From positions 1-38,661 of the forward strand of contig NZ_CALKTQ010000174.1 of NCBI RefSeq assembly GCF_937997465.1: 38,661 nucleotides of DNA, in the 5' to 3' direction. The notes beneath the pieces are model-generated. The model did no database searches and had not been told where the DNA came from. It saw nothing but the letters and a program-made list of their open reading frames with translations. A program made the translations under genes and the position numbers. This document shows, in pieces, positions 4,136 through 29,025 of this stretch. Within the stretch, counting starts at the first letter, position 1. Every line of letters begins with the position of its first letter. The DNA is from an uncultured Campylobacter sp. (GTDB lineage: Bacteria > Campylobacterota > Campylobacteria > Campylobacterales > Campylobacteraceae).

Positions 4136-4263
4136 TGATTCCCCATAAATGACGGATTTCAAGCTTTAAAATTTTAAACCCGTTTCGGTTACGGACGACG
4201 AGTCCGCGCCCTCACGGATTAAAATTTTAAAGTTAAACTACGCCTATTATGTCTGGAATATTT
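4136..4263. repeat. Dispersed ~128-nt palindromic element, copy 1 (MITE/REP-like)
   Basis: Near-identical to 9514-9641 and shares outer arms with 28897-29025. Internal inverted repeat CTTTAAAATTTTAA/TTAAAATTTTAAAG; ends ATTCC...GGAAT. Confidence 0.9.
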
Positions 4264-4351
4264 CTACCGATTTTACTAAATTTAATCGTAAATTATGCTA
4301 ATAAAGCATAGAAGTTTATTATTAAGCCTGCAAAAAGCGCACGAATTTAGT

Positions 4352-4357
4352 TATAAT
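4352..4357 (+). promoter_or_regulatory. Putative -10 box of the telA-yqiJ-yqiK operon
   Basis: TATAAT ~30 nt before the TTG start; AAGGA RBS at 4376-4380. Confidence 0.5.
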
Positions 4358-4386
4358 AACTCTCAAATTTAAGTAAAGGACAAGCT

Positions 4387-5454
4387 TTGAATCAAATCGC
4401 TAAAACGCCCCAAGACGTTGTCGCCTTACTCATAGAAAAAAGGAAAGAATTTGACGATCCGAAAGAATTTATCGTATCGTTCGGCAAAGACGAACTAGGC
4501 GAGTTTGAGAAGCTAAACGGCGATATGGATATGAAGGTCGGCGACTTGCTTAGTATGAGTCAAAGCGTGGGAAGCTCGGTCGGCGAGTCGCTAAAGTCGG
4601 TCAAAAAATACTCCGCCGAGCTTATAAAAGCAAGCGACAAGATGAAGGAGGGCGGACTGGGGGCGAAATTTATAAATTTCTTGCTCGGCAAAGACCTGGC
4701 CGCCGAACTAGCTAGCAAATATCAAAGCGTGTCAAGCTTGTTTGAAGAAATCACGGCAAATTTAAAACACTCCATAAACGTTTTAGAAGCTAGAAACGCA
4801 GAAATCTCCGAGAAGCAAAAGGAACTCTCGCTCATCATCGAAAGTCTAAAAGGCAAGATAGAAATTTTAAGCAAAACAGACGAGCTCATCGAAAATTTAG
4901 CGGCAAATCAAATAGACGAAGAACAGAAAAAATTTCTCCTCGAAGAGGCGCTATTTTACATCCGTATGCATTTGCAAAATTTGCAACAGGTGCTTGTCGT
5001 GATGCAGCAAAGCCTCGCAAACTACGCTACTATCAAGCACAATAACTCGCTTTTAAGTTTCGCCACGCAAAACACGATCACAACTAGCATCACGGCGCTA
5101 AAAACCAACGTCTATATCGCAAGTGCAGCACAAGAAGGCAAAAAGCAGCTAAAAGCGGTTTCTGAGATGGACAAGCTAGCTAGCGACGTTATCCTAAAAA
5201 ATGCGCAGGACGTAAACGATACGGCAACAGACGTGATGGCAAAGGTTGCAGGCGGTGCGCTAGATAACCAAAACCTTGAAAAAGCGATAAATTTGATGAT
5301 AGATTCGCTAGATAAGATAGAAAATTTCAAAAACGAGGCGCTGCCGAAGATGAAAGAAAATATCGCCAAAATATCGCAGATGAGTAAGACGCTGGGAAGC
5401 AAGGTAAATAAGCTCGAAAAGATCGAGCAAAGCGACGTGTATAGCATAGAGTAG
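4387..5454 (+). CDS. Toxic anion resistance protein, TelA/KlaA family (divergent)
   Basis: All-helical. KYQSV, LLEEALFYIR, IKHNNSLL, TTSITALKT and DKIENFK resemble the recalled TelA/KlaA pattern (KYQS..LFYVRQ..KNN.EL..TTT.SALRT..D.ID.FK). Confidence 0.7.
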   Translation: MNQIAKTPQDVVALLIEKRKEFDDPKEFIVSFGKDELGEFEKLNGDMDMKVGDLLSMSQSVGSSVGESLKSVKKYSAELIKASDKMKEGGLGAKFINFLLGKDLAAELASKYQSVSSLFEEITANLKHSINVLEARNAEISEKQKELSLIIESLKGKIEILSKTDELIENLAANQIDEEQKKFLLEEALFYIRMHLQNLQQVLVVMQQSLANYATIKHNNSLLSFATQNTITTSITALKTNVYIASAAQEGKKQLKAVSEMDKLASDVILKNAQDVNDTATDVMAKVAGGALDNQNLEKAINLMIDSLDKIENFKNEALPKMKENIAKISQMSKTLGSKVNKLEKIEQSDVYSIE

Positions 5455-5515
5455 AGCGGAGTAAAGGTCAAATTTGACCTCGCAAGCGGCAAAATTTAAA
5501 AACAAAAGGTAAAAG

Positions 5516-6136
5516 ATGGATCAAATTTTAGAGCTTCTCGGCAATAACCTCATATTTTCCGTTCCGCTGGTTATCGTTGTAGTTTTCGCCTTGCTTGAGG
5601 TTATTTTGATGATGACCGGATTTTCAGCGCTTGAGCCGATAAACGGGCTATTTGACGGAACGGACGGCATAGATGCGCCCGGCGCCGAGTTGTTAGCTTG
5701 GGCAAATAAAGGCGGCGTGCCGAGTACGATTTTTTACGGGATTTTGCTTATGAGCTTCGGGGCGTGCGGGCTTTTTATCACCGGCGTTTTTTACGGCTCC
5801 GCCTCGCCTGCGTGGTATATGAGCGCGGTTATCGCTGTAGTTTCGTTTTTTATCGCTTTGACTTGGACTAGATGGGTGAGCTTGCTTGCGGCAAAGTACC
5901 TGCCTCAGGTGCAAACGTCGGCCTTTAGTAAAAAGGAGCTTCTTGGCTGCGAATGCGAAGTAAAGGACTATAAAATCACAAAAGAGCAAGGCGGAGACGT
6001 CAAGGTCACGGATAAAAACGGCAAGGAGCGTTTTGTCTTTGCGCGGGCTGCGGATGAAAACGAGCTTATAAAAGGCGATACCGCGCTCATCGTTAAAATC
6101 GATAAAAATAACTTTTACGTCAGGAAAAAATCATAA
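5516..6136 (+). CDS. yqiJ: YqiJ/DUF1449 (NfeD-like) membrane protein with C-terminal OB-fold
   Basis: N-terminal TM helices, LAWANKGGVP motif, C-terminal beta-rich domain (VKVTDKNGKERFV); immediately upstream of a flotillin. Confidence 0.75.
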   Translation: MDQILELLGNNLIFSVPLVIVVVFALLEVILMMTGFSALEPINGLFDGTDGIDAPGAELLAWANKGGVPSTIFYGILLMSFGACGLFITGVFYGSASPAWYMSAVIAVVSFFIALTWTRWVSLLAAKYLPQVQTSAFSKKELLGCECEVKDYKITKEQGGDVKVTDKNGKERFVFARAADENELIKGDTALIVKIDKNNFYVRKKS

Positions 6137-6157
6137 ATTTAATCAAAGGAGAATAGT

Positions 6158-8113
6158 ATGAACATTGACGGAATGACTTCTTTGGCCGTATTTGTCGGCA
6201 TAGGACTCTTTTCTATCATCATTTTGGGTATCGTCTTTTCGAGGCTTTACCGAAAAACGACAAAGGAGCTTACGTTCGTGCGAACGGGCTTTGGCGGCGA
6301 AAAGGTCGTCGTAGACGGCGGCGCTTTGATACTGCCGATACTGCATGATTATATCGACATAAATATGCAGTCGATGAAGGTCACGGTAGCTCGTTCCAAA
6401 AGCGATAGCTTCATAACCAAAGACAGGATGCGCGTGGATATTACGGCTGATTTTTATATCAGAGTGGGCGAGGATAGAGAGTCTATCTCGCGCGCGGCGC
6501 AAACGCTGGGTAAAAAGACGATCGATCTGCGCGAGCTAACCGGGCTGATAGAAGGCAAGCTCATCGCTACGCTCCGCTCGGTGGCAAGCTCGATGGAGAT
6601 GAAGGAACTACACGAAAAAAGGGATGAGTTTAGCTCACAGGTCAAAAATGCTATCGAAGCCGATCTATCTAAAAACGGCCTTCAACTAGAGTCCGTCTCT
6701 CTAACGTCGCTAGATCAAACGGCTAAAGAGTTTTTTAACGAAAACAACGCTTTTGACGCAGAAGGTTTAACAAGCCTAACCCAAACTATCGAGGAACGCA
6801 AAAAGCTACGAAACGATATCGAGCGCTCGACCGAGGTACAAATCGCGCAGAAAAACTATGAAACGCAGTCGGAGAAATTTGAAATCCAAAGAAAACAAGC
6901 CGAGGCCGAAGCCACGCAACAAACCAAGATAGCGAATTTCCAAGCCGAGCAAGAAGCGCTAAGAGCAAAAGAAGCCGAAAGTAGGCGCAAGGAGGCCGAA
7001 GAAGCCAAGATCGTCGCGAACAAAGCTATCGAAGAGGCGCAGATAAACAAAGCAAAGGCTATCAAAGAAACCGAGATCGAAAAGGAAAAAGCTCTCGAAA
7101 TCGCCACTCAAAACAAAAACATCGAGATAGCCAAGAAAAATCAAGAAGTTGAAGAGGTCAGGATCGCCGCTCACAAAGCCATCGAACAGGCTGAAATCGA
7201 AAAGGCCAAAACCATAGAAACGGTGGAGGTGCAAAAGGCCAGAGTTGTCAAAGAAGCCGAGATAGAAAAGGAAAAAGTCATTGAGCTGGCAAATCAGAGC
7301 AAAAATATCGAAATCGCTAAAAAAGTCGAAGAAGAAGCCGTGGCTAAAACCCTAGCCAACGAGAAAAAGGCGCTAGAAGCCGCGTCGCTGGAAAAGATCA
7401 AAACCGCCTCCGAAATAGAACAAGCCGAACGTATCAAAAAGCTAGCTCTAATCGAAGCACAGCAAGACGCCGAGCAGCTATCTATCGAAAAAACCGTCGC
7501 CGCAAAGGCTGAAAAAGAGGCCGAGGAAAACCTAGCCGAAGCTGCCAAAATCAAAGCGATGGGCACAAGCGAAGCGCTAAAGATCAAAGCTACCGCAGAA
7601 GCCGAAGCCATAAAGATAACGGCTGAAGCCAACAGGCTAAACTACGAGGTCGAGGCTAAGGGTAAAACCGAGATAAATAACGCCGAAAACATCGTCTCGG
7701 CGGCGATTTTGGAAAATAGATTTAAGCTCGCCTTGATCGAGTTTATGCCGCAAATCATCGCCCAGGTCGTAAAACCCGCAGAGAAAATCGACTCTATCAA
7801 AATCGTGCAAATGGCGGGCATGGGCGGCGCAAATCAGGGCGGTGCGGGTTCAAATGCTAACGGCGGCGTTAGCAACGCTGGAGCATCTCTCTCCGATCAA
7901 ATCGTAAATGCGTCTCTAAACTATAAAGTAAATGCACCGATAATCGACGATCTAATGAAACAAGTCGGCATCGATCTAAACGGCGGGATACAAAATATCG
8001 CCTCGCCCCTGCTGGACGGTTGCGAAAAAGCTAAAGACGCGTCAAATTTTAGCGCAAAAGAGACTGAGAAATTTAATGTAGCAAGCGAACAAAAAGACGG
8101 CAAGAAAAAGTAA
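6158..8113 (+). CDS. yqiK: Flotillin/SPFH family membrane protein (YqiK-like)
   Basis: N-terminal TM, FVRTGFGGEKVV, ITKDRMRVD, NGLQLESVSLTSLDQT, NAFDAEGLT, long AE-rich coiled coil, C-terminal KPAEKIDSIKI. Confidence 0.92.
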   Translation: MNIDGMTSLAVFVGIGLFSIIILGIVFSRLYRKTTKELTFVRTGFGGEKVVVDGGALILPILHDYIDINMQSMKVTVARSKSDSFITKDRMRVDITADFYIRVGEDRESISRAAQTLGKKTIDLRELTGLIEGKLIATLRSVASSMEMKELHEKRDEFSSQVKNAIEADLSKNGLQLESVSLTSLDQTAKEFFNENNAFDAEGLTSLTQTIEERKKLRNDIERSTEVQIAQKNYETQSEKFEIQRKQAEAEATQQTKIANFQAEQEALRAKEAESRRKEAEEAKIVANKAIEEAQINKAKAIKETEIEKEKALEIATQNKNIEIAKKNQEVEEVRIAAHKAIEQAEIEKAKTIETVEVQKARVVKEAEIEKEKVIELANQSKNIEIAKKVEEEAVAKTLANEKKALEAASLEKIKTASEIEQAERIKKLALIEAQQDAEQLSIEKTVAAKAEKEAEENLAEAAKIKAMGTSEALKIKATAEAEAIKITAEANRLNYEVEAKGKTEINNAENIVSAAILENRFKLALIEFMPQIIAQVVKPAEKIDSIKIVQMAGMGGANQGGAGSNANGGVSNAGASLSDQIVNASLNYKVNAPIIDDLMKQVGIDLNGGIQNIASPLLDGCEKAKDASNFSAKETEKFNVASEQKDGKKK

Positions 8114-8140
8114 ATCTAGCCTCAAATTTGATTAAAGTTG

Positions 8141-8200
8141 TGTAAAGGGGCGGCACACTAGCGCGGTAAAGCCGGCTAAATTTGGCCGTCCTTTTTTACA
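8141..8200 (+). terminator. Probable terminator hairpin after yqiK
   Basis: TGTAAAGGGGCGGC pairs with GCCGTCCTTTTTTACA around a ~30-nt loop; T-run on the 3' side. Confidence 0.5.
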
Positions 8201-8448
8201 ATCAAAACAATAGCTGCTTTTTGTGGTTGTTTTTGGCATATTTTGAGCTGTCTGCACGGCTGTAAATTTAACATCTACAAATTTTAAACACGTTTAATAT
8301 TTATGTAAATTTAACTGCTTAAGTTAAATTTTATATTCCCTTTCAAATTTGATTAAATCGCAAGCAAATTTTATTAATTTTTTATTTTAACATCAGTAAA
8401 ATACAGCTTAAGAAATCGGGTCGATTTTACCTTTTCAAAGGACACTTC

Positions 8449-9516
8449 ATGAATTTTTCAAACACAAAATGGTTTATCGCCTCAGGTACGGCGCTTGGCG
8501 CTTTAGGCGCATTGCTTGTGTATTTTGGCAACCCCGGCAACATGGGGGTTTGCGCGGCTTGCTTTTTGCGCGATACGGCGGGAGCGCTCGGCTTTCACCG
8601 CGCAGGAGTCGTGCAGTACGTGCGCCCGGAGATCATCGGGCTCATTTTGGGCGGCTTTTTAGCTAGCGTGCTTTGGACGAAGGAGTTTAGCGCTACCACG
8701 GGTTCGTCGCCTTTCGTGCGCTTTTTTCTCGGATTTTTCGCGATGATTGGCTGCCTCGTGTTTTTGGGCTGCCCGTGGAGGGCGTTTTTGCGTCTTGGCG
8801 GTGGCGATATGACGGCGATTGCAGGAGTCGTCGGTATTTTTGCGGGCGTGTGTGCGGGCGTATTTTTCAAAAAGCTCGGCTACGGCCTCACGCACGAGAC
8901 TAAAACTCAGGCCGCGATAGGCGTTTTGCCGACGGTTATCGGTATTTTGCTGCTTGCTGCGCTTGCGTTTGGGCTAAAGCTCGGCGAAAACGGCGCGCTT
9001 TTTAGCTCTGCAAAGGGCCCCGGCTCCATGCACGCTCCGATCCTGATCTCGCTTGGATTTAGTATCGTCGTGGGCGCGCTAATGCACAAAAGCAAATTTT
9101 GTAGCGTAGGGGCGTTTGGTAGGCTTTTTAAAGGGGATTTCTCGATGTTTACTGGGATCATCAGTATCGTCGTTTTTGCCAGCATTGTAAATTTGGCGCT
9201 CGGGCAGTATAAATTCGGCTTTGAAGGCCAGCCTATCGCGCACAACGACGTGGTTTGGAACTTCCTTAGCATGACGCTAGCAGGGCTTTGCTTTAGCCTG
9301 AGCGAAGGCTGCCCGGGCAAGCATCTCGTGCAAATGGGCACGGGCAATCTAAGCTCGGTTATATTTGTCATCGGTATGGCGGCAGGTGCGGCCGTAGCGC
9401 ATAACTTCTTGCTCGCTAGCTCTCCTAGCGCCATAACGGCAGCGGCTCCGTGGGCGGTAGCGATGGGGTTTGTTTTTGCGGTTTATGTGGGATTTTTCCA
9501 TAAAAAAGCCGCTTGA
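8449..9516 (+). CDS. yedE: YedE-family putative selenium transporter
   Basis: GNPGNMGVCAACFLRD, two GCP motifs, FCSVG; multi-TM; yedF, selD and selC are nearby. Confidence 0.88.
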   Translation: MNFSNTKWFIASGTALGALGALLVYFGNPGNMGVCAACFLRDTAGALGFHRAGVVQYVRPEIIGLILGGFLASVLWTKEFSATTGSSPFVRFFLGFFAMIGCLVFLGCPWRAFLRLGGGDMTAIAGVVGIFAGVCAGVFFKKLGYGLTHETKTQAAIGVLPTVIGILLLAALAFGLKLGENGALFSSAKGPGSMHAPILISLGFSIVVGALMHKSKFCSVGAFGRLFKGDFSMFTGIISIVVFASIVNLALGQYKFGFEGQPIAHNDVVWNFLSMTLAGLCFSLSEGCPGKHLVQMGTGNLSSVIFVIGMAAGAAVAHNFLLASSPSAITAAAPWAVAMGFVFAVYVGFFHKKAA

Positions 9517-9641
9517 TTCCCCATAAACGACGGATTTCAAGCTTTAAAATTTTAAACCCGTTTCGGTTACGTATTTCATATACGCGCCCTAACGGGTTAA
9601 AATTTTAAAGTTAAACTACGCCTATTCTGTCTGGAATATTT
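9514..9641. repeat. Dispersed ~128-nt palindromic element, copy 2
   Basis: Direct repeat of 4136-4263; its first TGA is the yedE stop codon. Confidence 0.9.
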
Positions 9642-9876
9642 GTCGTATATCTTGCTAAATTTATAAATTTGACATTTTCGCGGCGCGGGTCTCGGCGAGC
9701 GAAAGACGTAAATTTAACTTATATAAAAAGCGAGCTTGAATTTGACAAATTTGATGGCGGCTAAGAGTAAAAAGCAGGCTAAAACATAACCTAGCCTGCA
9801 AGAAATAAATCTTTTATCTAAAAAGTAGTCAAATTTGCTCGGCTCGTATACCAAACCAAAGCCGAGTCAATTAAAT

Positions 9877-10311
9877 TTAGCCCAAAAGCCCCGCCCCTTT
9901 TATCGCTTGACTGCGCTCTTTTGCGTAGATGCGCTCGCCTCCTATGACGTCGTATTTCCAGATCGGCGCGTTAGCTTTAAAGTCCTCGACAAACTCATTT
10001 ATCAGCCGCAAGGCGACCTTTCTTTGCGGGCTAACGACACCTGCGACATAGGAGCTCTCGTGTACCGGCACGTCTCCGCGAGAATGCGCGAAAAGTACGT
10101 ATGCGCCCAGATCCTTTGCCTTTTGCTCCCAGCCCGCTAGCCATTTGCGCAGGATCGGCTCGTAGATGTCAAAGCTAAGCGCGCTGATGCCGCCTTCCTC
10201 GCGCACGATGCCGGTAAACGTGATGAGCGCGCCGCAGTTTTTGTCCTTAAACTCGTCGTACCAAGCGTTTGTGATCGCTTTGGCGTCGAGACTTCCATCA
10301 AATATCTGCAT
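9877..10311 (-). CDS. moaE: Molybdopterin synthase catalytic subunit
   Basis: GALITFTGIVR, HSRG and FKANAPIWKYD motifs. Confidence 0.95.
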   Translation of the reverse strand: MQIFDGSLDAKAITNAWYDEFKDKNCGALITFTGIVREEGGISALSFDIYEPILRKWLAGWEQKAKDLGAYVLFAHSRGDVPVHESSYVAGVVSPQRKVALRLINEFVEDFKANAPIWKYDVIGGERIYAKERSQAIKGAGLLG

Positions 10312-10312
10312 C

Positions 10313-10534
10313 TTAACCTCCGCAAACTGGCGGTAAAATGGAAATTTTATCCCCGTCTTTTAGCGGCGCGTCTAGCGAGCTTGCGATCTCGTCGTTTACG
10401 GCGACGGCGCAGATTTTTAGCCACTCGCCAAGCTCCTCGTATTCGCCTAGTTTTTCTTTTACTTCGCTTAAATTTGCCGCTTCCAGCTTTAAATTATTCA
10501 TCTTTATCGGGCCCAAAAACTCGATTTCTACCAT
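10313..10534 (-). CDS. moaD: Molybdopterin synthase sulfur carrier subunit
   Basis: 73 aa, AVAVN, C-terminal LPPVCGG; adjacent to moaE. Confidence 0.95.
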   Translation of the reverse strand: MVEIEFLGPIKMNNLKLEAANLSEVKEKLGEYEELGEWLKICAVAVNDEIASSLDAPLKDGDKISILPPVCGG

Positions 10535-10625
10535 AAATTCACCTTTGAAATTAAATTTTTTTCTTGATTTTACTTAAAAAAATATTTAGATATACTTACG
10601 CCAAATTTTAAACGAAAGAGCCCTA

Positions 10626-11765
10626 ATGAACGAAATCTTAAGCAAAATAAAAACTCCTGCCTACATCTGCGAAGAGGCCAAGGTGCGCGCAAATCTCGAA
10701 ATTTTAAAACGCGTCAAGGATGAAAGCGGCGCAAAGGTGCTAGTCGCCCTAAAAGGCTTTGCATTTAGCGGCGTGATGGGGCTTGTCGGCGAGTATCTAG
10801 ACGGCGCGACGTGCAGCGGCCTACACGAGGCTAAATTTGCCCAAAAACACGTTCGCGGCGAGATCCATACCTATTCGCCTGCATTTAAAGACGAGGACAT
10901 AGATGAGGTGCTAGCTCTCTCAAAGCACGTGGTTTTTAACTCCTTTGCACAGTGGGCTAAATTTAAAGAAAAAGCTCTGGCCGCAGGCGTTACCTGTGGG
11001 CTTCGCGTAAATCCCGAGCTCTCCGTCGCGCCGACTGACGCGTATAACCCGTGCGGTCGCTACAGCCGACTGGGTATCACGCGCGCAAATTTCGACGCTG
11101 ACGCGCTTGATGGTATCACGGGACTGCATTTTCATGCGCTTTGCGAGGAGAGCGCGCAGAGCCTGGAGACCGTGCTGATGGCGTTTGAGGAGAAATTCGG
11201 CGAGTTTATCCCGCGCATGAAGTGGGTAAATTTCGGCGGAGGACATCACGCAACCAAAGAAGGCTACGACGTAGATCTGCTCATAAATTTGATTAAAAAT
11301 TTCCGCGCAAAATACGGCGTCGAGGTCTATATAGAGCCCGGCGAAGCGGTGGGCTGGCAGACGGGATTTTTAGCCGCTTCGGTGCTTGATTTCGTACAAA
11401 ACGAAAAAACCATAGCCATCCTAGACGTTTCAGCCGAGGCGCATATGCCTGACACCGTGCTGATGCCCTACCGACCAGCGGTACGAGGCGAGAGCAAGGG
11501 CGGTAAATTTAGCTACCGTTTGGGCGGAAATACCTGTCTAGCCGGCGATATCATGGGGCTTGACGCGGGCGAGCCGGAGTATAAATTTGACGCGCCGCTA
11601 AGCGTGGGCGATAAAGTGATCTTTGAGGACCAGATCCACTACACGATCGTGAAAAACACGACCTTTAACGGCATAAAGCTGCCTGATTTGCTACTTTTAA
11701 AAGAAAACGGCGAGCTTGTAACCGTGCGGGAATTTGGCTTTGAAGAGTATGAGAGGCGAAACTAA
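10626..11765 (+). CDS. nspC: Carboxynorspermidine decarboxylase
   Basis: ALKGF PLP lysine, LHFHALCE, NFGGGHH, EPGEA, CLAGD and HYTIVKNTTFNG motifs. Confidence 0.95.
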   Translation: MNEILSKIKTPAYICEEAKVRANLEILKRVKDESGAKVLVALKGFAFSGVMGLVGEYLDGATCSGLHEAKFAQKHVRGEIHTYSPAFKDEDIDEVLALSKHVVFNSFAQWAKFKEKALAAGVTCGLRVNPELSVAPTDAYNPCGRYSRLGITRANFDADALDGITGLHFHALCEESAQSLETVLMAFEEKFGEFIPRMKWVNFGGGHHATKEGYDVDLLINLIKNFRAKYGVEVYIEPGEAVGWQTGFLAASVLDFVQNEKTIAILDVSAEAHMPDTVLMPYRPAVRGESKGGKFSYRLGGNTCLAGDIMGLDAGEPEYKFDAPLSVGDKVIFEDQIHYTIVKNTTFNGIKLPDLLLLKENGELVTVREFGFEEYERRN

Positions 11766-12110
11766 ATTTGCCTCCTGAAACTGCGCCCTTTAGGGTGCAA
11801 ATTCGACGTTTGGGAGGGCGCCGTTTGTGGCTGTAAATTTAAATCAAATTTTACGCCAGGTTTCTGCCTGATATGCGCGTGCGCTAAACCCGTAGCTTTT
11901 CGGATTTAAATTTTGAAATTTGGTTTATCGCCCGCCAAATTTGCCGCAAATTTAATCACAAACGAAGTTAAATTTAAGATAAATAAAATCTAGCTTATAT
12001 AAATGAATTAATATAGCGGATTATAAATTTGACCTTGATTTTGATAAAAAAGCGCCACAACTGCCTAAAAATGCATTGTTTTGACGCTAAGCTTGCATTA
12101 CGTTATTTTT

Positions 12111-12119
12111 TGATATAAT
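12111..12119 (+). promoter_or_regulatory. Extended -10 promoter (TGATATAAT) for fdhC
   Basis: Perfect TGnTATAAT about 90 nt upstream of the fdhC start. Confidence 0.6.
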
Positions 12120-12208
12120 TTCATGAAAATCCGCAAAATTTAGCCTTTGGCTGGATGCCGACCACGACGAGCTTTTTAAGGCGGAAAACAAAACCAAAGG
12201 GAGATAGC

Positions 12209-13156
12209 ATGACGAGAATTTTTAGTTTGCTTTCGGTCTTCGCCTGTTGGGTCTTCGCTATCGAGGCGAGTCCTAGCACAAACCAGTACCAGAGCAATAT
12301 CTGGGCTGCGGGTAGAATCGAGAACATTAAGCCTTACGAAGACGGTTTGGGGCCGATTTTCACGTTCATTCAGGGCAACGACTACTTCGCTATAGCCGTT
12401 TTGTCGCTGATTTTAGCCGTGATTGGGGCATTTGCTTTGCATTTTTTGATTATCGGGCCAAAGCATTTTAGTCACGACGGGAACAAAGTCTATGCATTTA
12501 GCGTAATAGAGCGCGTCGCTCACGGGCTAGCCGCGATCTCGTGGATAGTACTGGTACCGACCGGTATCATCATGATGTGGGGTGCGGAGCTTGGCGGCGG
12601 AGCTTTCGTGAGATTTTGTAAAAATATTCACGGGTTAGCCACTATTATATTTGCGGTATCCGTATTACCGATGCTGATAGCTTGGACGAAAAGAATGCTA
12701 CCGACGATCTACGACATCAGATGGATGCTGATCGTAGGCGGGTATCTTTCAAAAGTTAAGCGACCAGTGCCTGCAGGTAAATTTAATGCTGGTCAAAAAG
12801 CATGGTACTGGGTCGCTATCCCCGGCGGTATCGTGATGATACTAACCGGTGCCGCGATGTTCTTCTTAGATTTTAAAACGCCTGACGTCGCTACTTGGCT
12901 AGGCGTACCGCAAATCGAAGTTTTAAGAGCTTCTGCACTAATCCATAACGTGCTTGGCATCGTGTGTGCGGTATTTTTCCTAGTGCACATCTACATGGCT
13001 GCTATCGCGATACACGGCGCTATCTGGTCGATGGTAACGGGATATAAAGAAGAAGAAGAGGTTTATGTGCTTCACCACTACTGGTATCAGGAACTCATCT
13101 CTAAAAATAAAATTCCCGTATCTGAATACGAAAAAACTTACGCAAAATTAAAATAA
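12209..13156 (+). CDS. fdhC: Formate dehydrogenase cytochrome b (gamma) subunit
   Basis: ERVAH, KNIH, GGYL...AGKFNAGQK, IHN and HIYMA heme-ligand motifs. Start moved to ATG 12209 (AAAGGGAG RBS, signal-like N-terminus). Confidence 0.92.
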   Translation: MTRIFSLLSVFACWVFAIEASPSTNQYQSNIWAAGRIENIKPYEDGLGPIFTFIQGNDYFAIAVLSLILAVIGAFALHFLIIGPKHFSHDGNKVYAFSVIERVAHGLAAISWIVLVPTGIIMMWGAELGGGAFVRFCKNIHGLATIIFAVSVLPMLIAWTKRMLPTIYDIRWMLIVGGYLSKVKRPVPAGKFNAGQKAWYWVAIPGGIVMILTGAAMFFLDFKTPDVATWLGVPQIEVLRASALIHNVLGIVCAVFFLVHIYMAAIAIHGAIWSMVTGYKEEEEVYVLHHYWYQELISKNKIPVSEYEKTYAKLK

Positions 13157-13157
13157 T

Positions 13158-13186
13158 AAAAAAGGAGAAGTTTTTCTCCTTTTTTT
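13158..13186 (+). terminator. Intrinsic terminator after fdhC
   Basis: AAAAAAGGAGAA pairs with TTCTCCTTTTTT; U-tail. Confidence 0.75.
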
Positions 13187-13293
13187 ATTTTAAAGCCTAG
13201 GCTGAAATCCGCCTTTTATACGAAATTTAAAATCTTTTAGATAAAATTCCCCTCAGACTTCAGGTTGAAGAGTAATAAATTTAAGGAAAAATC

Positions 13294-13893
13294 ATGCAAA
13301 TCGATTGTAGAAATTTGGCTTGCCCTGAGCCCGTTATTAGGACTAAAAATGCGCTTGAAGGATTAAAAAATGGCGAAAAGCTTGAAATTTTAGTAAATTC
13401 TATCGCTCCAAAAGAAAACATAAGCCGCTTTTTAAAAAACCAAAACGTCGAATTTAGCGTAGAGCAAAACGCTGCCGAGACGAAAATCACCGCCGTTAAA
13501 GGCGAATCCAAACTTGAGCTAACGAATTTTGACGAATTCGTCTGCGAAATCACGCCAAAGAATAAAAAAACAGTCGTTTATCTAAATGAAGAATACGCCG
13601 GAAGCGGCGACGTGGGCGTTAGCTTGCTGTCTAAATTTTTAGGAGCGCTTTTGCAGGTAGAAAATAAGCCCGAATACGTAATCTGCGTAAATAATGCCGT
13701 CAAAATGACGACAAACCGCGCTCATCCAAGCTTCAAACCACTTAAGGATTTAGAAGCTGCGGGCGTTAAAATTTTAAGCTGCGGCAGCTGCCTAGAGGCG
13801 TACAAGCTCGTAAGCGACCTAAGCGTCGGCGAGATGTCAAACGCCTACGAAGTCATGCAAATTTTAACTACGCACGAGCAAATCAAACTATGA
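13294..13893 (+). CDS. yedF: Selenium metabolism protein YedF (TusA/SirA plus DsrE-like domains)
   Basis: IDCRNLACPEP TusA motif; C-terminal CGSCL; overlaps the selD start (ATGA). Confidence 0.9.
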   Translation: MQIDCRNLACPEPVIRTKNALEGLKNGEKLEILVNSIAPKENISRFLKNQNVEFSVEQNAAETKITAVKGESKLELTNFDEFVCEITPKNKKTVVYLNEEYAGSGDVGVSLLSKFLGALLQVENKPEYVICVNNAVKMTTNRAHPSFKPLKDLEAAGVKILSCGSCLEAYKLVSDLSVGEMSNAYEVMQILTTHEQIKL

Positions 13894-14912
13894 TTTATAA
13901 CGACAAACGTCTCACGAAATTCGTCCGAGCGGCGGGTTGAGCGGCCAAGCTTGACCCGTCGGGTCTAAACAAAACTATCGGCGATTTAAATTTAGCTCAC
14001 CCAAATTTGCTCTCAAACATCGGCACAAACGAAGACGCAAGCGTCTTTAAGATCACGGACGACATCGCGCTCGTGCAGACGCTAGACTTTATCACGCCGG
14101 TGGCGGACGATCCGTTTATATTCGGTCAGATCGCAGCCGCAAACAGCCTAAGCGACGTGTTTGCGATGGGCGGCAAGGTACTAAACGCGCTAAATATCGT
14201 CGGTTTTGACAGCTGCAACCTAAGCGGCGAAATTTTGGGCGAAATTTTACGCGGCGGGCAGGATAAGGTCGCCGAATGCGGCGGCGTGATCGTGGGCGGA
14301 CACACGATAGAGACGCAGCAGATGTATTACGGGCTTAGCGTCACGGGCGTCGTTTCGCCGAGCTCCTTTTGGTCAAACAACACCGCGCGCGAGGGCGACG
14401 CGCTCATACTTACAAAGCCGCTGGGAACGGGCATTTTAAGCACGGCGATCAAGGCCGATCTGCTAAATTTAACCCAAATCGAACAGGCCGTCGAGACGAT
14501 GCGGCAGCTAAATTTCTACGCCGTGGACGCGCTAAAAGGCATCAACGTAACGGCGGCGACCGACGTCACGGGATTTGGCTTTTTGGGGCATTTAAGCGAA
14601 ATGCTAAACGACAAAATCAGCTTTGAAATTTACCCTGATAACGTTCCCGTGATAGCGGCCGCGCGCGAGTTTGCCGATATGGGCATCATCCCCGAGGGCA
14701 GCTATAAAAACCGCGAATTTGCGAGTAAATTCGTTAGCGGCGACGCTGATATCTTGCTTTACGATGCGCAGACTTCGGGCGGATTACTGCTAGCGGTACC
14801 GCAAAGTGAGGTAAATTTGGCTCTTTCTCGTCTAAAAGAGGCGGGTTATGAGAGCTCGGTAGTCGTAGGTATAGCTAAAAAACGCGGCGAATACGGCATA
14901 AATTTACGGTAG
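13890..14912 (+). CDS. selD: Selenide, water dikinase, itself a selenoprotein (Sec17)
   Basis: ATG 13890 is in frame with track ORF 14007: MIYNDKRLTKFVRAAG-UGA(13938-13940)-AAKL. DFITP, AANSLSDVFAMGG, GGHT, DVTGFG and DAQTSGGLL motifs. Confidence 0.95.
13951..13968 (+). promoter_or_regulatory. Putative bacterial SECIS hairpin of selD
   Basis: GACCC-GTC-GGGTC stem starting 12 nt after the in-frame UGA, with G in the apical loop. Confidence 0.6.
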
Positions 14913-15515: not shown

Positions 15516-15524
15516 GAGGGCGTG

Positions 15525-17078: not shown

Positions 17079-17089
17079 CCCCCGACTAA

Positions 17090-20836: not shown

Positions 20837-20995
20837 ATCCCGCCTAAATTTTTGCGTAATTATATAAAAAAATTATTTTGGATTAGGTTAAATTTACGTT
20901 TGACGGGAATTTAAAATTTGAGTTTAAAACGGCTCAAATTCGCGTCCAAATTTGAGCCCTAAATTTCTCGCCCTCTTGCGAAAATCAGCTAAAAT

Positions 20996-24174: not shown

Positions 24175-24176
24175 TT

Positions 24177-24959: not shown

Positions 24960-25006
24960 GAAAATCTCCCAAATTTATCAGTATAAAAAAATAATTTGCT
25001 AGGAAG

Positions 25007-25023
25007 TATATTTAAATATATAT
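25007..25023. promoter_or_regulatory. Putative ModE operator
   Basis: TATAT-TTAAATA-TATAT fits TATAT-N7-TAYAT, 48 nt upstream of modE. AT-rich context lowers specificity. Confidence 0.55.
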
Positions 25024-25141
25024 GAAAAATAACTTAAATAAACTTCGTAATACCGGGCATTTTGAAATTTATAAATTTAAAAGCTACATTGAGATAAAAT
25101 CCTAAGTTACTGCCTTTGCAGACTTGAAATTCGGAGATTTG

Positions 25142-25843
25142 ATGAGAAAATTTTTACTCTCTCTTTTGCTTTTTTTTAGTTGCGTTTTTGCCGAACAAAC
25201 GCAAGAAAAGAGCGAATTTGACGACGAATTTACCCAGCCTAGCGAGATTTTCGATCCGCTTAGCGGTTATAATAGAATGATGACAGGGTTTAATGATTTT
25301 ATGTACGTAAACGCCATCCATCCCGCGATAAAAGGCTACAACTACGTAGTGCCCGAGGCTGCCAGAACTGCGGTGGGAAATTTTTTTGACAACCTTTTAT
25401 ATCCCGTTCGCTTTGTAAATAACCTCTTGCAGTTTAAATTTAGCGAGGCCGGCGAAGAGACGCTGAGATTTTTAGCAAACACGATCATCGGCTTTGGCGG
25501 GCTAACCGACGGCGCGAAATACTACAATCTGCAGCGCCATGACGAGGATTTTGGCCAGACGCTTGGATACTGGGGCGTGGGTAGCGGGTTTCACGTGGTT
25601 TTACCGTTTATCGGCCCGTCAAATTTACGCGATATCGTCGGTCTAGTCGGCGATTATTATCTCGATCCCATCAGCTATGTAAAGCCGGCTCTAGACTCCT
25701 TTGCGATAAAAACTTTCCGTCAGGGCAACCTTTTGTCTTTACATCCAGATGCTTACGACAATCTTAAAAAAGACGCGATCGACCTGTATCCGTTTCTACG
25801 CGACGCCTACGAACAGCGCCGCAACCACTTAATAAAGGAATAA
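25142..25843 (+). CDS. mlaA: VacJ/MlaA family protein
   Basis: DPLSGYNR, EDFGQTLGYWGVGSG, LPFIGPSNLRD, YPFLRDAYEQRR. GGAG RBS favours ATG 25142. Confidence 0.92.
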   Translation: MRKFLLSLLLFFSCVFAEQTQEKSEFDDEFTQPSEIFDPLSGYNRMMTGFNDFMYVNAIHPAIKGYNYVVPEAARTAVGNFFDNLLYPVRFVNNLLQFKFSEAGEETLRFLANTIIGFGGLTDGAKYYNLQRHDEDFGQTLGYWGVGSGFHVVLPFIGPSNLRDIVGLVGDYYLDPISYVKPALDSFAIKTFRQGNLLSLHPDAYDNLKKDAIDLYPFLRDAYEQRRNHLIKE

Positions 25844-25844
25844 A

Positions 25845-26432
25845 ATGAAATTTTTAAAAATCATCCTGCTTGCGCTTTTTAGCGCGGTTAGCCTCTTTGC
25901 GATCAGCGAGGATCAGATAAAACCTACGATGCAAAAAACGACGCAAGACGCCATCGAGGTGCTAAAAAACGCAAATTTGAGCAAAGACGAGAAAATAAGT
26001 AAAATTTTCGCCGTTTTTGATCCATATTTCGACTACGAGCAGATGTCTAAAATCGCCCTAAACAAGCGCTACAACAACCTAAATGCCGAGCAAAAGGCTA
26101 AATTTAATAAAGCTTTTGAAGAGAGGTTAAAATCAAGTTACGTCGATAAACTTTTAAGCTATAAAAACCAAACTATAAATTTTAAAGACGCTACCAAACC
26201 AAACGAAAATCGCTACTTTCTAAACGCCGATCTAGTTGGCGAGGACGGTAAAAACTACGGCTTTACGTATAAATTTTACAACGCCAAAGAGCGTGGCTGG
26301 CTCATTTACGACGTCGAAATTTTAGGCGTTAGCATCATCCAGACCTACCGCAGTCAGTTTGATAGCTTGATGGAAAACGAGAGCTTTGAAAATTTGCTTA
26401 GCAAGCTAAACTCCGTCCAAGCTCCGCAATAA
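25845..26432 (+). CDS. mlaC: MlaC/Ttg2D phospholipid-binding periplasmic protein
   Basis: Signal peptide, FDYEQMSKIAL, WLIYDVEILGVSIIQTYRSQF. Confidence 0.9.
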   Translation: MKFLKIILLALFSAVSLFAISEDQIKPTMQKTTQDAIEVLKNANLSKDEKISKIFAVFDPYFDYEQMSKIALNKRYNNLNAEQKAKFNKAFEERLKSSYVDKLLSYKNQTINFKDATKPNENRYFLNADLVGEDGKNYGFTYKFYNAKERGWLIYDVEILGVSIIQTYRSQFDSLMENESFENLLSKLNSVQAPQ

Positions 26433-26439
26433 GGCGCTG

Positions 26440-28899
26440 ATGAAGCGGATTTTTAAATTTATCGTCAACTTTCCAAAGAGCGCTATCGCAGGCGTACTGA
26501 CCGCGACGCTCTTTTTTGGATATTTCAGCGGCAAGCTCGAGGTGGACGCGTCTACCGAGACACTGCTACTTGAAAACGATAAAGACTTAGCCGTCTTTAG
26601 GGACGTTTTTAAACGTTACGTTAGCCCTAACTACCTAGTCATCGCCTATACGCCAAAAGACGATCTGCTCGCGCCCTCTACGCTTAAAAAGATAGAAAAT
26701 TTAAGCCGCGAACTAGAAAAAAACGAGCTTGTATCAAGCGTCATTTCTATATTAAACATCCCGCTGCTTCAAAGCGGAACTAACGATCTTAGCGAGCTAG
26801 TTAAGCACGTACCAAGCCTTGTCGATGCCGATATAAACAAAACCTTGGTGCGACGCGAGTTTGTGGATAGTCCGCTATATACGAACAACCTCGTTAGCCG
26901 CGACCTAAAAACTACGGCGATCGTGCTAAATTTAAAGACCGACGAGAAATATCAAAGCATACTAAACGAGCGAAACGCCCTGCTAAACGCCAAGATTGAC
27001 GGCAACATCACCAGCGAGCAAAAACAGCGCCTAAGCGCCGTAAATGCGCAGTTTAAGGCTCACCGCGACGAAGCGCGTATAAAAGAGCACGCCGCGATCG
27101 AGCAGATACGCGAGACGATAGCGAAATTTGGCGGCGGCGAAAGCCTATTTTTAGGCGGGGCAAATATGATCGCGGATGATATGGTGAGCTTCGTGCGCTC
27201 GGATCTTGCAACCTACGGCATCAGCGTGACTCTGCTTTTGGTCTTTTGCCTTTGGCTGTTTTTTAGGCAGATTCGCTACATCGTTATGCCGATTTTTATC
27301 TGCGTGATTAGCGTTATTTGGGCGAGCGGGTTGTTTGGGTTTTTCGGCTGGGAGATCACGGTGATTAGCTCAAACTACATCGCTCTTCAGCTCATCATCA
27401 CTATCTCCGTCGTCATACACCTGATCGTGAGCTACCGCGAGTTTTGCATCACAAAGCCGCATCTTAGCAACCGTCAACTAGTCTATCTCACGTTGCGCGA
27501 TAAGGCCAGTCCGTCGTTTTTTGCGATATTTACGACCGTTATCGGCTTTTTGTCGCTTGCGCTTTCTGATATCAAACCGATCATAATGCTAGGTATCATG
27601 ATGAGTGTGTCGATCTCTATCTCGCTGGTGCTTGCGTTTTTGCTATTTGGCTCCGCGACGGCGCTGATGCCAAAGCTCGCTCCCGTTAGGACGTTTGAGG
27701 ATAAATTTAGCTTTACCAAGCACTGCGCCACATTTGCGCTAAATCACAGCCGCGCTGTTTATGCTATTAGCCTTGCGGTGCTTATTTTCGGGCTTTACGG
27801 TATCTCAAAGCTAAAAGTCGAAAACAGCTTTATAAGCTATTTTAAAGATACGACCGAAATCCACAAGGGCATGCAGGTGATCGATACGAAGCTAGGCGGC
27901 ACGGTGCCGGTCGATATATTGATCAAATTTAACAAGCCCAAATTTAACGAAAAAGCGGCCAAAAACGAGCCTAAAGACGAATTTGACGACGAATTTGCCG
28001 CTAGCGCGAAAGAGGATAAATACTGGTTTAATCAGCATAAAATCGACGTCGCGAAAAAGGTGCACAACTATCTAGAAAATAAGCGCTTTATCGGGCAAGC
28101 GAGCAGCCTAAACACGGTCGTAAAGATCGTCGAGCGCATCACGCAAAAGCCCGCCGACGGCCTCATGCTCTCGATCCTATACGAACAGATCCCGCAAAAG
28201 TACAAAGACATAATCCTAAGCCCCTACGTAAGCATAAAAGATAACGAGCTGCGCTTTACCGCGCGAACTCTTGATAGCGACGACGCGCTACGTAGGGACG
28301 AGTTTTTGCGCGAGCTTAGAACCGATATCGCAAATTTGATAGCAAACGACAACGCAAGCGTGCAAGTTAGCGGCGCGATGGTGCTTTATAACAACCTCCT
28401 TCAAAGCCTCATCGCCTCGCAAGTCGATTCTTTTGGTTTTGTTATCTTGTCGCTTTTTATCGTTTTTTGTATTATTTTTAAAAGCATAAAGCTCGCCGCC
28501 ATCGCCATCACGTCAAATTTAATCCCGCTTTGCGCGGTGTTTGGCGTCATGGGCGTGCTGGGCATTCCGCTTGATATCATGAGTATTACGATAGCAGCTA
28601 TCAGCATAGGCATCGGCGTGGACGACATCATCCACTACATCCACCGCCTAAAAATCGAGCTTCGCAGCAAAAACGTCGCCGAGTCGATCAAGGCCTCGCA
28701 CGCCAGTATCGGCTACGCGATGTACTACACCTCGTTTGCGATCATCCTGGGTTTTAGCATCATGGTAACGAGCAACTTTATCCCGACGATATATTTCGGA
28801 CTTCTGACCGATCTTGTTATGATAATGATGTTGTTGGGGGCGCTAGTATTGCTGCCAACCTTAATCAAAACCTTTTACCGGGCTAGGATCCCCCGCTGA
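26440..28899 (+). CDS. MMPL/RND family transporter
   Basis: Two repeats of a periplasmic loop plus TM bundle; TTVIGF, GIGVDDIIH; follows mlaA-mlaC. Confidence 0.9.
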   Translation: MKRIFKFIVNFPKSAIAGVLTATLFFGYFSGKLEVDASTETLLLENDKDLAVFRDVFKRYVSPNYLVIAYTPKDDLLAPSTLKKIENLSRELEKNELVSSVISILNIPLLQSGTNDLSELVKHVPSLVDADINKTLVRREFVDSPLYTNNLVSRDLKTTAIVLNLKTDEKYQSILNERNALLNAKIDGNITSEQKQRLSAVNAQFKAHRDEARIKEHAAIEQIRETIAKFGGGESLFLGGANMIADDMVSFVRSDLATYGISVTLLLVFCLWLFFRQIRYIVMPIFICVISVIWASGLFGFFGWEITVISSNYIALQLIITISVVIHLIVSYREFCITKPHLSNRQLVYLTLRDKASPSFFAIFTTVIGFLSLALSDIKPIIMLGIMMSVSISISLVLAFLLFGSATALMPKLAPVRTFEDKFSFTKHCATFALNHSRAVYAISLAVLIFGLYGISKLKVENSFISYFKDTTEIHKGMQVIDTKLGGTVPVDILIKFNKPKFNEKAAKNEPKDEFDDEFAASAKEDKYWFNQHKIDVAKKVHNYLENKRFIGQASSLNTVVKIVERITQKPADGLMLSILYEQIPQKYKDIILSPYVSIKDNELRFTARTLDSDDALRRDEFLRELRTDIANLIANDNASVQVSGAMVLYNNLLQSLIASQVDSFGFVILSLFIVFCIIFKSIKLAAIAITSNLIPLCAVFGVMGVLGIPLDIMSITIAAISIGIGVDDIIHYIHRLKIELRSKNVAESIKASHASIGYAMYYTSFAIILGFSIMVTSNFIPTIYFGLLTDLVMIMMLLGALVLLPTLIKTFYRARIPR

Positions 28900-29025
28900 T
28901 TCCCCATAAACGACGGATTTCAAAAGTAGTTTTTGATTAAGGCGCTCGGTCACATACCATATGTATGCTCTCGTCACGCCTAATCAAAAACTATTTAAAC
29001 TACGCCTATTCTGTCTGGAATGTTT
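28897..29025. repeat. Dispersed ~128-nt palindromic element, copy 3 (variant core)
   Basis: Same outer arms (TGATTCCCCATAAACGACGGATTTCAA ... AAACTACGCCTATTCTGTCTGGAAT) but a different inner stem, TAGTTTTTGATTA/TAATCAAAAACTA. First TGA is the MMPL stop. Confidence 0.88.

Follow-up and report, generated by a model that had tools for sequence, protein, structure and literature searches.

Modular hairpin repeats at orthologous gene boundaries of oral Campylobacter and a candidate promoter on their flank

Three copies of an imperfect palindrome lie on one strand of the window, which is the whole stretch of 38,661 nt of Campylobacter DNA that was analysed. They raise the question of whether such a unit is a mobile element handled as folded single-stranded DNA or a structured RNA; a sequence-only reading had offered both and had expected many copies genome-wide. 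The three copies are true members of a small, undescribed family of hairpin elements of ~125 bases, which probably act as transcribed RNA hairpins and not as an active jumping element.

Copies, anatomy and covariation

All three copies were re-found on the + strand at the positions claimed for them (Table 1). Searches with the left arm (22 nt) and the right arm (25 nt) gave 3 matches each in the window at ≤1 mismatch, for a chance expectation of 0.00 (100 dinucleotide-preserving shuffles). Each copy folded into a single long hairpin with z-scores of -4.2 to -5.4 for the + strand sequence and -5.6 to -6.6 for that of the minus strand, and 0 of 200 shuffles folded as well. The apices were confirmed as quoted (CGGAC-gacga-GTCCG, CGTAT-ttcat-ATACG and CATAC-catat-GTATG, every stem 5 bp and every loop 5 nt), as was the complete replacement of the middle stem in copy 3 with its self-complementarity kept. 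The claimed extent of ~128 nt had to be revised. The first two bases (TG) are outside the element family-wide, and in copies 2 and 3 they belong to the TGA stop codon of the upstream yedE-like and MMPL-family genes, respectively, on which the left end lies. On the other side the outline was incomplete, since ~40 nt to the right of each copy are likewise conserved among the copies. Copy 1, a long hairpin, separates telA from the moeA start codon (ATG at 4122, minus strand).

Table 1. Positions of the copies, their right flanks and adjoining features in the window. For parts of the element, the strand is the sense of the putative RNA; element sequences are quoted on the + strand. R1, covariance model of the family.
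Feature	Position	Strand	Remarks
moeA	2926..4122	-	start codon 14 nt from copy 1 left end
Copy 1	4136..4263	(-), putative RNA sense	site U4; module A; apex CGGAC/GTCCG; R1 140.5 bits
Copy 1 right-flank block	4264..4310	-	AAATTTAG box and -10-like TAAAAT (4275 to 4270); predicted start 4263
yedE/yeeE-like transporter gene	8449..9516	+	stop codon overlaps copy 2 first base
Copy 2	9514..9641	(-), putative RNA sense	site U1; module A; apex CGTAT/ATACG; R1 146.7 bits
Copy 2 right-flank block	9642..9725	-	-10-like CAAGAT (9654 to 9649); AAATTT boxes; copy of module X linker
Terminator-like hairpin, then T run	9774..9799	-	closes moaE-like gene (9877-10311, minus), just before copy 2 promoter-like block
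MMPL-family gene	26440..28899	+	stop codon overlaps copy 3 first base
Copy 3	28897..29025	(-), putative RNA sense	site U0; module B; apex CATAC/GTATG; R1 120.8 bits
Copy 3 right flank	29026..29133	-	AAATTT boxes; weak hexamer CAGGAC; reaches stop of convergent BON-domain gene (29134-29742, -)

Across the family, the unit is a hairpin of about 122-125 nt in which two conserved arms are mostly unpaired and the middle and inner stem covary freely; it also has a core hairpin of ~30 nt (TCGGTYAC, 5-bp stem, 5-nt loop, GCKCCC). The termini pair only over 5 bp (ATTCC/GGAAT), the arms being otherwise non-complementary, and the conserved ~40-nt block adjoins the hairpin at one side only.

The earlier claim that the core conserves structure and the ends conserve sequence held in 43 diverse copies: 30 of 40 pairs were changed on both sides, and the arms were near-invariant. 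Covariation exceeded both shuffled and slid controls; on the structure from single-sequence folds, 90.5% of the cells were pairing, compared to 71.1% in shuffles and 31-49% with slid partners. The plain MAFFT alignment gave 87.8% pairing versus 75.1% shuffled, with 18/40 pairs changed on both sides. From this alignment RNAalifold recovered only 12 pairs because the modules misalign in it, and the structure was therefore derived from single-sequence folds. More than 10 distinct stem modules share a scaffold of constant length, which makes the family a natural data set of compensatory evolution.

Between species, one and the same orthologous site holds different whole inner modules (B, E or A at U0; A, B or D at U3; A or D at U4). 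The module breakpoints fall inside short termini.

Copy number, sites and insertion

The expected abundance was not borne out, as the source draft genome, a metagenome-assembled genome of the Campylobacter showae/rectus group, holds about 6 copies. Searching its 2.24 Mb with the arms at ≤5 mismatches returned only the 3 window copies and one left arm at the end of contig C34; BLAST and the covariance model added C264:174-293(-) and C319:1387-1498(-). Model R1 found 1-9 copies per genome in 54 of 142 Campylobacter genomes, with 5-9 within the showae/rectus clade. In a pattern search with 116 matching stretches, 80 of 80 records among the matches listed were Campylobacter (showae, sp. or uncultured). 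Several contig ends in drafts of showae/rectus-clade genomes carry these repeats and their linkers.

Nearly all distinct instances (133/139) were assigned to seven orthologous sites, with upstream-flank clusters of 30, 26, 24, 21, 17, 13 and 2, and the left end touched a coding-sequence boundary in 125 of 129 evaluable instances. Past the hairpin, a minus-strand ORF of at least 100 aa begins within 3-16 nt in 42/139 instances; the genes concerned are moeA and queH and, in another species, those for a Mur ligase and Ham1. A further 83/139 have a + strand ORF ending within the first 15 nt of the element and no gene next in minus sense. Site U1 is also occupied in more distant species; a possible relic at U1 of genome G041, seen by eye, was not counted, as it gave no model match even with filters off.

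Outgroup genomes were compared for empty sites. Five of them have a moeA upstream region that lacks the element, so that the insertion came to separate moeA from any older promoter farther out. At the empty site of copy 3 the two stop codons are a few bases apart, and the DNA corresponding to the copy 3 right flank is missing as well. Left flanks read TG/TA/AA... and right flanks AT/GT with no direct repeat, and the empty sites were too diverged for a target duplication to be read.

Insertion relative to outgroups and the module differences at single sites would both fit an element that acts as DNA, with the folded single strand or a cruciform as substrate of recombination or insertion (attC- or foldback-like), the arms as protein-binding sites and any RNA incidental. 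Conserved arm sequence around stems that vary at near-constant length agrees with this (90/97 unique cores are 120-125 nt; the other 7/97, of 155-165 nt, carry an extra internal hairpin), as do wobble and mismatch positions on both strands and the U4-U1 segment, which measures 1.4 kb in genomes G005 and G024 and 5.4 kb in the window. Many integron cassettes carry attC after an ORF of the same orientation, and the 83 copies that follow such an ORF with the stop codon in their first 15 nt resemble this arrangement. The likeness to attC extends to the folded imperfect palindrome, to structure kept above sequence, to ends that are conserved although the central stem varies, and to a length in the attC range. 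However, attC sites have R boxes (RYYYAAC/GTTRRRY) at their paired ends and stand in arrays of single-gene cassettes; the ATTCC...GGAAT ends lack the R-box consensus, and the sites lie beside core genes (moeA, the mla/MMPL operon) 1.4-19 kb apart, not in a cassette array, the window spacings of 5.4 and 19.4 kb holding core-gene operons.

Contrary to the proposal of a mobile element, no recent mobility was seen, the instances being at seven fixed sites, and plasmid and phage searches found no copies of the element. The co-occurring HUH/RAYT transposase that had been envisaged was absent from the source genome: PF01797 was found in 1/142 Campylobacter genomes, there as a fragment containing stop codons, by a search that was positive in 6/14 well-known control genomes. 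A DNA-level element also leaves unexplained why the flank is conserved on one side only and why the two strands differ in folding energy. We consider it unlikely, and the evidence leans towards an element that acts as RNA rather than as folded single-stranded DNA.

The flanking block and the sense of transcription

For the right flanks, 94 of 106 unique sequences had a AAATTTAG-type box with a hexamer immediately after it, placed 10-11 nt before the hairpin (ATTCC) in 93 of those 94. The hexamer ends in T at position 6 in 79/94 flanks, the A at position 2 being imposed by the search pattern, and more distant copies retain TAAGAT or TAAAAT there. The arrangement suggests a promoter directed at the hairpin; the poor hexamer of copy 3 (CAGGAC) counts against this. 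A scan of the flank blocks for E. coli-type promoters, which demands a -35 hexamer, found none. Readings of the block as sigma-54 or sigma-28 promoters were rejected by eye because of unsuitable spacings.

A linker, module X (CGCCGAGACCCGC...GAAAATG), points at the hairpin in the flank of copy 2. Its core was found in a copy-2-like position at 21/23 U1 instances, and it points at the hairpin in 33/130 right flanks and 0/133 left flanks. The motif AAATTT-NN-AAATTT was discarded as a general promoter element, having only 23 occurrences within 150 nt upstream of 827 gene starts and no favoured position. It is enriched in intergenic DNA (204 intergenic versus 112 coding occurrences in a genome that is ~80% coding).

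For the strand sense, folding energies and wobble pairs point in different directions. The minus-strand fold was stabler in 91/97 and 36/43 family copies, by 7-10 kcal/mol, and the 3x3 internal loop of the core reads GAG/UGA in minus sense in many copies. Counted on the consensus structure, wobble pairs favour the + strand (G.U 108 versus A.C 50), the structure and alignment having been built on that strand; the bias is strongest in helix 2 (38 versus 1).

Sequencing runs were searched for contigs that cover the copies. Run X2, which is only guessed to be RNA, gave a 166-nt contig of depth 8.2 covering 4132-4263, with foreign ends of 18 and 16 letters that we take to be Illumina adapter. The 134-nt insert spans exactly the element and ends at 4263, 7 nt after TAAAAT, though a depth of 8 with identical ends could reflect PCR copies of one DNA fragment. 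Run X6, the sole one recorded as RNA among the 15 listed, gave a contig (3976-4194) that joins moeA coding sequence to the hairpin apex; such contigs are silent on strand and level, and X6 may contain DNA. Runs X1 and X3 consisted of contigs of other sites, and they and the uncovered parts are uninformative on expression. We know of no transcript maps for oral Campylobacter (C. showae, C. rectus).

The discrete 134-nt molecule and a promoter-like block at fixed distance could also belong to about seven sibling trans-acting small RNAs of ~134 nt, each with its own promoter and with the unpaired arms as seed or protein-binding region. Conserved single-stranded arms beside covarying stems would suit such RNAs, and the terminator upstream of the copy 2 block would fit an independent transcription unit. 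Against this, the 3' end has no terminator: past the hairpin an intrinsic terminator was lacking in both senses, a point that also weighs against the minus-sense reading preferred below. At sites of four kinds, moreover, such an RNA would continue directly into a gene, and a short-word BLAST found no other genomic place with extended complementarity to the arms. The shared core described below and the mosaic context also favour a repeat element over a dedicated sRNA gene. A family of this kind seems rather improbable.

Transcription in the opposite sense would make the unit a 3'-UTR hairpin, co-transcribed with the upstream gene, that would block 3' exonucleases or weakly terminate transcription at ...GGAAUAUUU, in the way of REP and ERIC. 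The 83/139 instances directly behind a + strand stop codon would equally suit this arrangement, and the + strand wobble pairs of helix 2 and of the long-stem base agree with it. AUAUUU precedes the end of the X2 insert, and in a library made by the stranded dUTP method a minus-strand read 1 would correspond to + sense RNA. A sister element, described below, is transcribed in + sense in the 23S-5S spacer of genome G007. However, sites U4 and U2 (42/139 instances) have no upstream + gene, the conserved block past the proposed 3' end would be unexplained, the + strand fold is the weaker one, and the U run is only 3 long. We regard the 3'-UTR hairpin as doubtful.

Known repeats and the preferred reading

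Comparison with Rfam agreed with the claim of an undescribed family, as the element had no match even at E≤1. With Rfam 15, the window at gathering scores and the five copy-holding loci at E≤1 yielded only tRNA-Sec. In the parts of the literature that were searched, no account was found of repeat families in oral Campylobacter or of such an element.

BIMEs of enterobacteria are intergenic mosaics of REP/PU units (palindromes of about 35-40 nt) and linker motifs near gene ends. The present element is alike in that the module X linker connects hairpin units that belong to two families; it differs in its units of 111-128 nt versus about 35 nt, in sequence, in the lack of a RAYT-type transposase, and in having only ~7 copies at fixed sites. 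ERIC/IRU sequences are ~127-bp imperfect palindromes of enterobacteria, and Correia/NEMIS elements are found in Neisseria. With these the element shares its length, one long imperfect hairpin, an intergenic co-transcribed position and longer variants with an internal hairpin, and possibly an outward promoter and RNA processing. In contrast to them, its ends pair over 5 bp without long terminal inverted repeats, covariation is extensive in its inner stems, conservation of the flank is one-sided, no target duplication could be read, and its few copies are at fixed positions. With respect to ERIC, blastn (word size 11, element plus flank) gave no match in a collection of 5,426 E. coli genomes. 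A Correia-type MITE has terminal inverted repeats of ~26 bp and a TA target duplication; the termini here pair as ATTCC/GGAAT alone, and the flanks hold no direct repeat.

Other identities were rejected. A Moco or other riboswitch upstream of moeA had no Rfam match, and the genes at other sites (queH, Mur ligase, Ham1) are functionally unrelated. A SECIS-like pairing of TGA and hairpin was discarded in view of TAA and non-stop variants at the same position and an apex ~60 nt away. A 6S-like RNA was ruled out by copy number, size and the lack of an Rfam match. A bridge RNA or omega RNA of IS110 or IS605 was set aside for lack of any such gene adjoining a copy.

The best reading is a mosaic repeat like BIMEs, ERIC or Correia elements, now fixed and transcribed on the minus strand from the adjacent promoter-like block. 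To a lineage-specific modular palindromic repeat of the oral C. showae/rectus clade with this flank-promoter RNA mechanism we tentatively assign a probability of about 0.45. On this reading, a unit of hairpin and flank was inserted at gene boundaries in the clade ancestor and is now fixed at about seven orthologous sites, as one unit type within a BIME-like mosaic of hairpin units and linkers. The flank block would act as promoter and transcribe the hairpin on the window minus strand, giving an RNA whose stable stem-loop starts 4 nt from the 5' end. Where a gene is next (moeA, queH, Mur ligase, Ham1), the hairpin would form an mRNA leader with its GGGGAA tail at Shine-Dalgarno distance from the start codon, and may influence stability or translation. 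Because the moeA ATG is 14 nt from copy 1, the moeA mRNA start must be within or beyond the element. Elsewhere, the product would be a stable ~134-nt RNA running against the 3' end of a convergent gene. Stems would be maintained by selection on the RNA fold, and copies would homogenise through exchange of whole inner modules. If the promoter reading is true, the housekeeping genes moeA and queH would have had their native control region displaced by the inserted unit.

A bolder version, which we think has little chance of being right, is a transposase-independent convertible unit. Inner modules, among them the ~30-nt core that also occurs in a genus-wide sister family and in rRNA-spacer copies, would be copied between fixed sites under the guidance of structure, through template switching at stalled hairpins or through a structure-specific recombinase on the ATTCC...GGAAT ends. 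Each unit would also bring along its own promoter and a stabilising leader at the 5' terminus, and would have rewired genes such as moeA and queH on arrival.

The GTCAC-stem-GCTC core had been likened to palindromic repeats of enterobacteria. It proved to be a reusable module that recurs in a second repeat family, and no sequence relation to E. coli repeats was found. This core hairpin of ~30 nt is common to the element and the sister family, which is genus-wide (133/142 genomes), and it occurs in 17 further hairpins of the source genome. As in the element, the minus strand of the sister family folds more stably (10/10 copies, by 7-10 kcal/mol). The element itself was not seen in rRNA operons. 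Each of the three rRNA operons of G007 has sister copies, which lie in the 23S-5S spacer and between spacer tRNAs. They are found in either orientation and, given this location, are transcribed. In this they resemble the intervening (IVS-like) and spacer hairpins of rRNA operons, though they lie in the spacers and not inside rRNA helices. A core shared by intergenic and rRNA-spacer hairpins suggests a common processing or recognition factor.

Structure and stem modules of the hairpin element

All three stretches of the window read as the sequence-only reading had described them, with shared arms and differing stems. With up to one mismatch allowed, a search of the window gave three matches each for the 22-nt left arm (ATTCCCCATAAACGACGGATTT) and the 25-nt right arm (AAACTACGCCTATTCTGTCTGGAAT) (0 expected; 100 shuffles). 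Copies 1 and 2 have the middle stem in common and differ in the apical hairpin, and copy 3 differs from both in middle stem, inner stem and apex. Self-complementarity is kept throughout, and each copy folds into a single long hairpin (z −4.2 to −6.6; 0/200 shuffles as good). The limits of the copies were redrawn: the leading TG, formerly counted as part of the element, varies across the family, and conservation extends about 40 nt beyond the right end of each copy.

Five helices were common to the single-sequence folds of 30 non-redundant copies. In a plain MAFFT alignment, 87.8% of cells were paired, compared with 75.1% after shuffling and 31–52% with slid partners, and both sides changed in 18 of 40 pairs. 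For 43 diverse copies in a model-guided alignment, which leans towards the model, the corresponding values were 90.5%, 71.1% and 31–49%; both sides changed in 30 of 40 pairs, among them every one of the 21 in the middle and inner stems. Length is kept at 120–125 nt in 90 of 97 unique cores, the remaining seven (155–165 nt) having an extra hairpin inserted. At least 10 unrelated stem modules occur on this one scaffold, and different species carry different modules at the same orthologous site (see Table). The variation within the window, at first taken as compensatory, is thus partly due to paralogues exchanging ready-made modules, which in their turn must have originated through paired changes.

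Copy number, insertion sites and history

The genome of the window is a 2.24-Mb draft in 348 contigs (designated C plus number). An arm search allowing up to 5 mismatches per arm returned the three window copies and one left arm at the extreme end of C34, and nothing else; two further copies were found by BLAST. The element is not abundant, contrary to the many genome-wide copies once expected. When one genome per species was scanned with an exact pattern, 116 stretches matched; all 80 records listed for them were Campylobacter, namely C. showae, Campylobacter sp. or uncultured Campylobacter. R1, the covariance model of the family, matched 54 of 142 genus genomes (40 of 123 at a completeness of at least 90%). 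Carriers mostly had 5–9 matches, a few more distant species 1–2 weaker ones, and complete genomes 7–9 strong copies each.

For site analysis, 139 distinct instances were taken from fetched loci and clustered by upstream flank, which resulted in clusters of 30, 26, 24, 21, 17, 13, 2, 1 and 1, with four instances unclustered. All seven orthologous sites (U0–U6) are either occupied or cut by a contig break in the window's own genome. The left end of the element adjoins coding sequence nearly everywhere. In 83 of the 139 instances, the stop codon of a plus-strand ORF (≥100 aa) starts between −2 and +12 relative to ATTCC, and in 42 a minus-strand ORF (≥100 aa) begins 3–16 nt past the left end; in 10 the flank did not reach far enough for a call, and 4 had neither ORF type.

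The element is missing both upstream of moeA and at the MMPL/BON junction in five outgroup genomes of the genus. In these genomes moeA and yedE stand side by side in divergent orientation, and a few bases separate the convergent MMPL and BON stop codons. Since 235 nt separate these stop codons in the window (28899 to 29134), the insert comprises the hairpin and about 100 nt of right flank. U1 and U5 are occupied already in some more distant species, so the family is older than its expansion. No site private to one genome was seen among the extracted instances, and hence there is no evidence for recent movement. The reading of the repeat as a DNA recombination substrate is considered rather unlikely; the readings discussed here partly overlap, because a repeat can be transcribed and recombinogenic at once.

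A segment with the telA, yqiJ-like and flotillin genes separates copy 1 from yedE in the window and likewise in genome G004. Genomes G005 and G024 lack it and have 1.4 kb between the two copies. The segment's breakpoint is about 55 nt right of copy 1. At one U0 locus (L060), a partial second copy with hybrid inner stem and right arm and no left arm lies about 75 nt right of the full copy, which suggests a past rearrangement between copies. After yedE in genome G041 (L226), arm remnants (ATTTCC... and ...AAACTACATAGATTGTGTTATTGAAT) can be recognised in about 125 nt of sequence with a different inner fold; as R1 does not match it, it may be a decayed relative.

Table. Features of the window and related loci. 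Positions refer to the window unless a contig is named.
Feature	Position	Strand	Remarks
U0, after MMPL-family gene	28897–29025		copy 3; modules at this site B with CATAC apex, or E, or A with either of two apices
U1, after yedE-like gene	9514–9641		copy 2
U2, before queH
U3, after formate/nitrite transporter gene			modules A, B or D
U4, before moeA	4136–4263		copy 1; module A in 17 instances, D in genome G106
U5, after DUF2130 gene
U6, after 173-aa ORF
Further own-genome copy	C264:174–293	−	BLAST
Further own-genome copy	C319:1387–1498	−	BLAST
Tandem pair of family copies	G104:C1:1632387–1632654 (L158)		more distant species; after yedE, 15 nt apart, different stem modules
Sister-family examples, own genome	C57:2677–2788; C72:10033–10144; C262:18095–18205		with others (L229–L238)
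Linker module X	9660–9725	−	also about 35 places in own genome (e.g. C60, C72, C95, C152, C308)
telA, yqiJ-like and flotillin genes	4387–8113
Selenium and molybdenum-cofactor cluster	8449–14912 and 29834–29928		includes tRNA-Sec
moeA	2926–4122		counted with cluster
yedE-like gene	within 8449–14912
moaE-like gene	9877–10311	−
TusA-domain gene	13294–13893
SelD-like gene, AIR-synthase family	14007–14912		called from TTG start

Proposed sense of transcription and promoter-like flank

Most weight is given to a hairpin transcribed in the minus sense and driven by the block in its right flank, at slightly less than even odds (about 0.45). The minus strand folded better in 91 of 97 and 36 of 43 copies of two element sets and in 10 of 10 copies of the sister family described below, by 7–10 kcal/mol (about 10 in the sister family) and with more pairs. 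In the minus sense, the core internal loop of many copies is GAG/UGA. A right-flank box was carried by 94 of 106 flanks, and in 93 of these 94 a −10-like hexamer lies 10–11 nt before the hairpin. A minus-sense gene begins 3–16 nt after the hairpin at four kinds of site; at moeA, the insertion sits between the gene and any older promoter farther upstream. Genome-wide, −10-like hexamers peak 31–40 nt before start codons, so ordinary leaders are short and a hairpin leader would be exceptional. Where a gene follows, the hairpin would form a 5'-terminal stem-loop leader, with GGGGAA as putative ribosome-binding site at queH and at two sites of genome G104. At sites without a following gene, a stable short RNA would run against the convergent gene.

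Other observations count for the plus sense, in which the element would be a 3'-UTR hairpin: wobble pairs outnumber A·C juxtapositions in the consensus structure (108 vs 50, concentrated in helix 2), the majority of copies lie downstream of a plus-strand gene, and a sister element is transcribed in the plus sense in a 23S–5S spacer. Set against the folding and flank data, this reading appears improbable.

In sequencing run X2, whose type was guessed, a 166-nt contig (depth 8.2) equals 4132–4263 between adapter-like ends, which indicates a 134-nt insert. One insert end falls exactly at the start predicted from TAAAAT, and the other 8 nt past the closing helix. In run X6, the sole run on record as RNA, a contig links coding sequence of moeA with the apex of the hairpin. 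Both findings come from contigs, and either may reflect DNA carry-over or PCR copies. That the copies form a family of sibling sRNAs acting in trans is considered about as improbable as the 3'-UTR hairpin.

Sister family, linker and known repeats

A strict core pattern (G-Y-H-A, perfect 5-bp stem, 5-nt loop, C-K-C) occurred at 24 places in the window's own genome. Five were copies of the element, two look like chance, and 17 lay in a second hairpin type of 111–112 nt with other arms and the same architecture and apex variants. Common to both families is the core TCGGTYAC-stem-loop-stem-GCKCCC. The outer helix of the second family also covaries (TTTTTCCTTTA/TAAAGGAAAAA and variants). Its model, R2, matched 133 of 142 genus genomes, with at least 20–26 matches per genome in the showae/rectus clade and 1–6 in most other species. 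All three rRNA operons of genome G007 carry a sister element in the 23S–5S spacer in rRNA sense, and another between the two spacer tRNAs in opposite sense (L246, L252).

Units are joined by a linker, module X, composed of AAATTT boxes, CCGAGACCCGCA and TTGAAAATG. Of 130 instances, 33 have its core to the right of the hairpin and directed towards it, with 21 of 23 at site U1; none of 133 left flanks contains it. Varied conserved units follow module X. At several places (e.g. C50, C101, C152, C340) the follower is a short unit that closes with a clear terminator (AACAACC-loop-GGTTGTT and a T run) and resembles a small RNA gene; elsewhere, module X is followed by G-rich hairpin arrays. In the same draft genome, non-coding sequence, roughly 20% of the total, has 204 occurrences of AAATTT-NN-AAATTT, and the coding 80% has 112. 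AAATTT fits RAATTY, a methylation motif linked with DNA uptake in C. jejuni.

The element is of a known kind, the interspersed palindromic or mosaic repeats, and the unit-and-linker mosaic is its feature most reminiscent of BIMEs. No Rfam family matched the element, Rfam holds no description of the family, and none appeared in the literature searched, at the level of titles and abstract openings. Blastn against E. coli genomes, plasmids and phages gave no match. The ends of the element form no long inverted repeats and lack the attC consensus of integrons. A Y1/HUH transposase was present in just 1 of 142 genus genomes. Unusual features are the unit, which is long and constant in length, the one core common to two families, the module exchange at fixed sites, the promoter-like flank on one side only and the lack of a RAYT transposase.

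The window also has a cluster of genes that serve the use of selenium and molybdenum cofactor (see Table).
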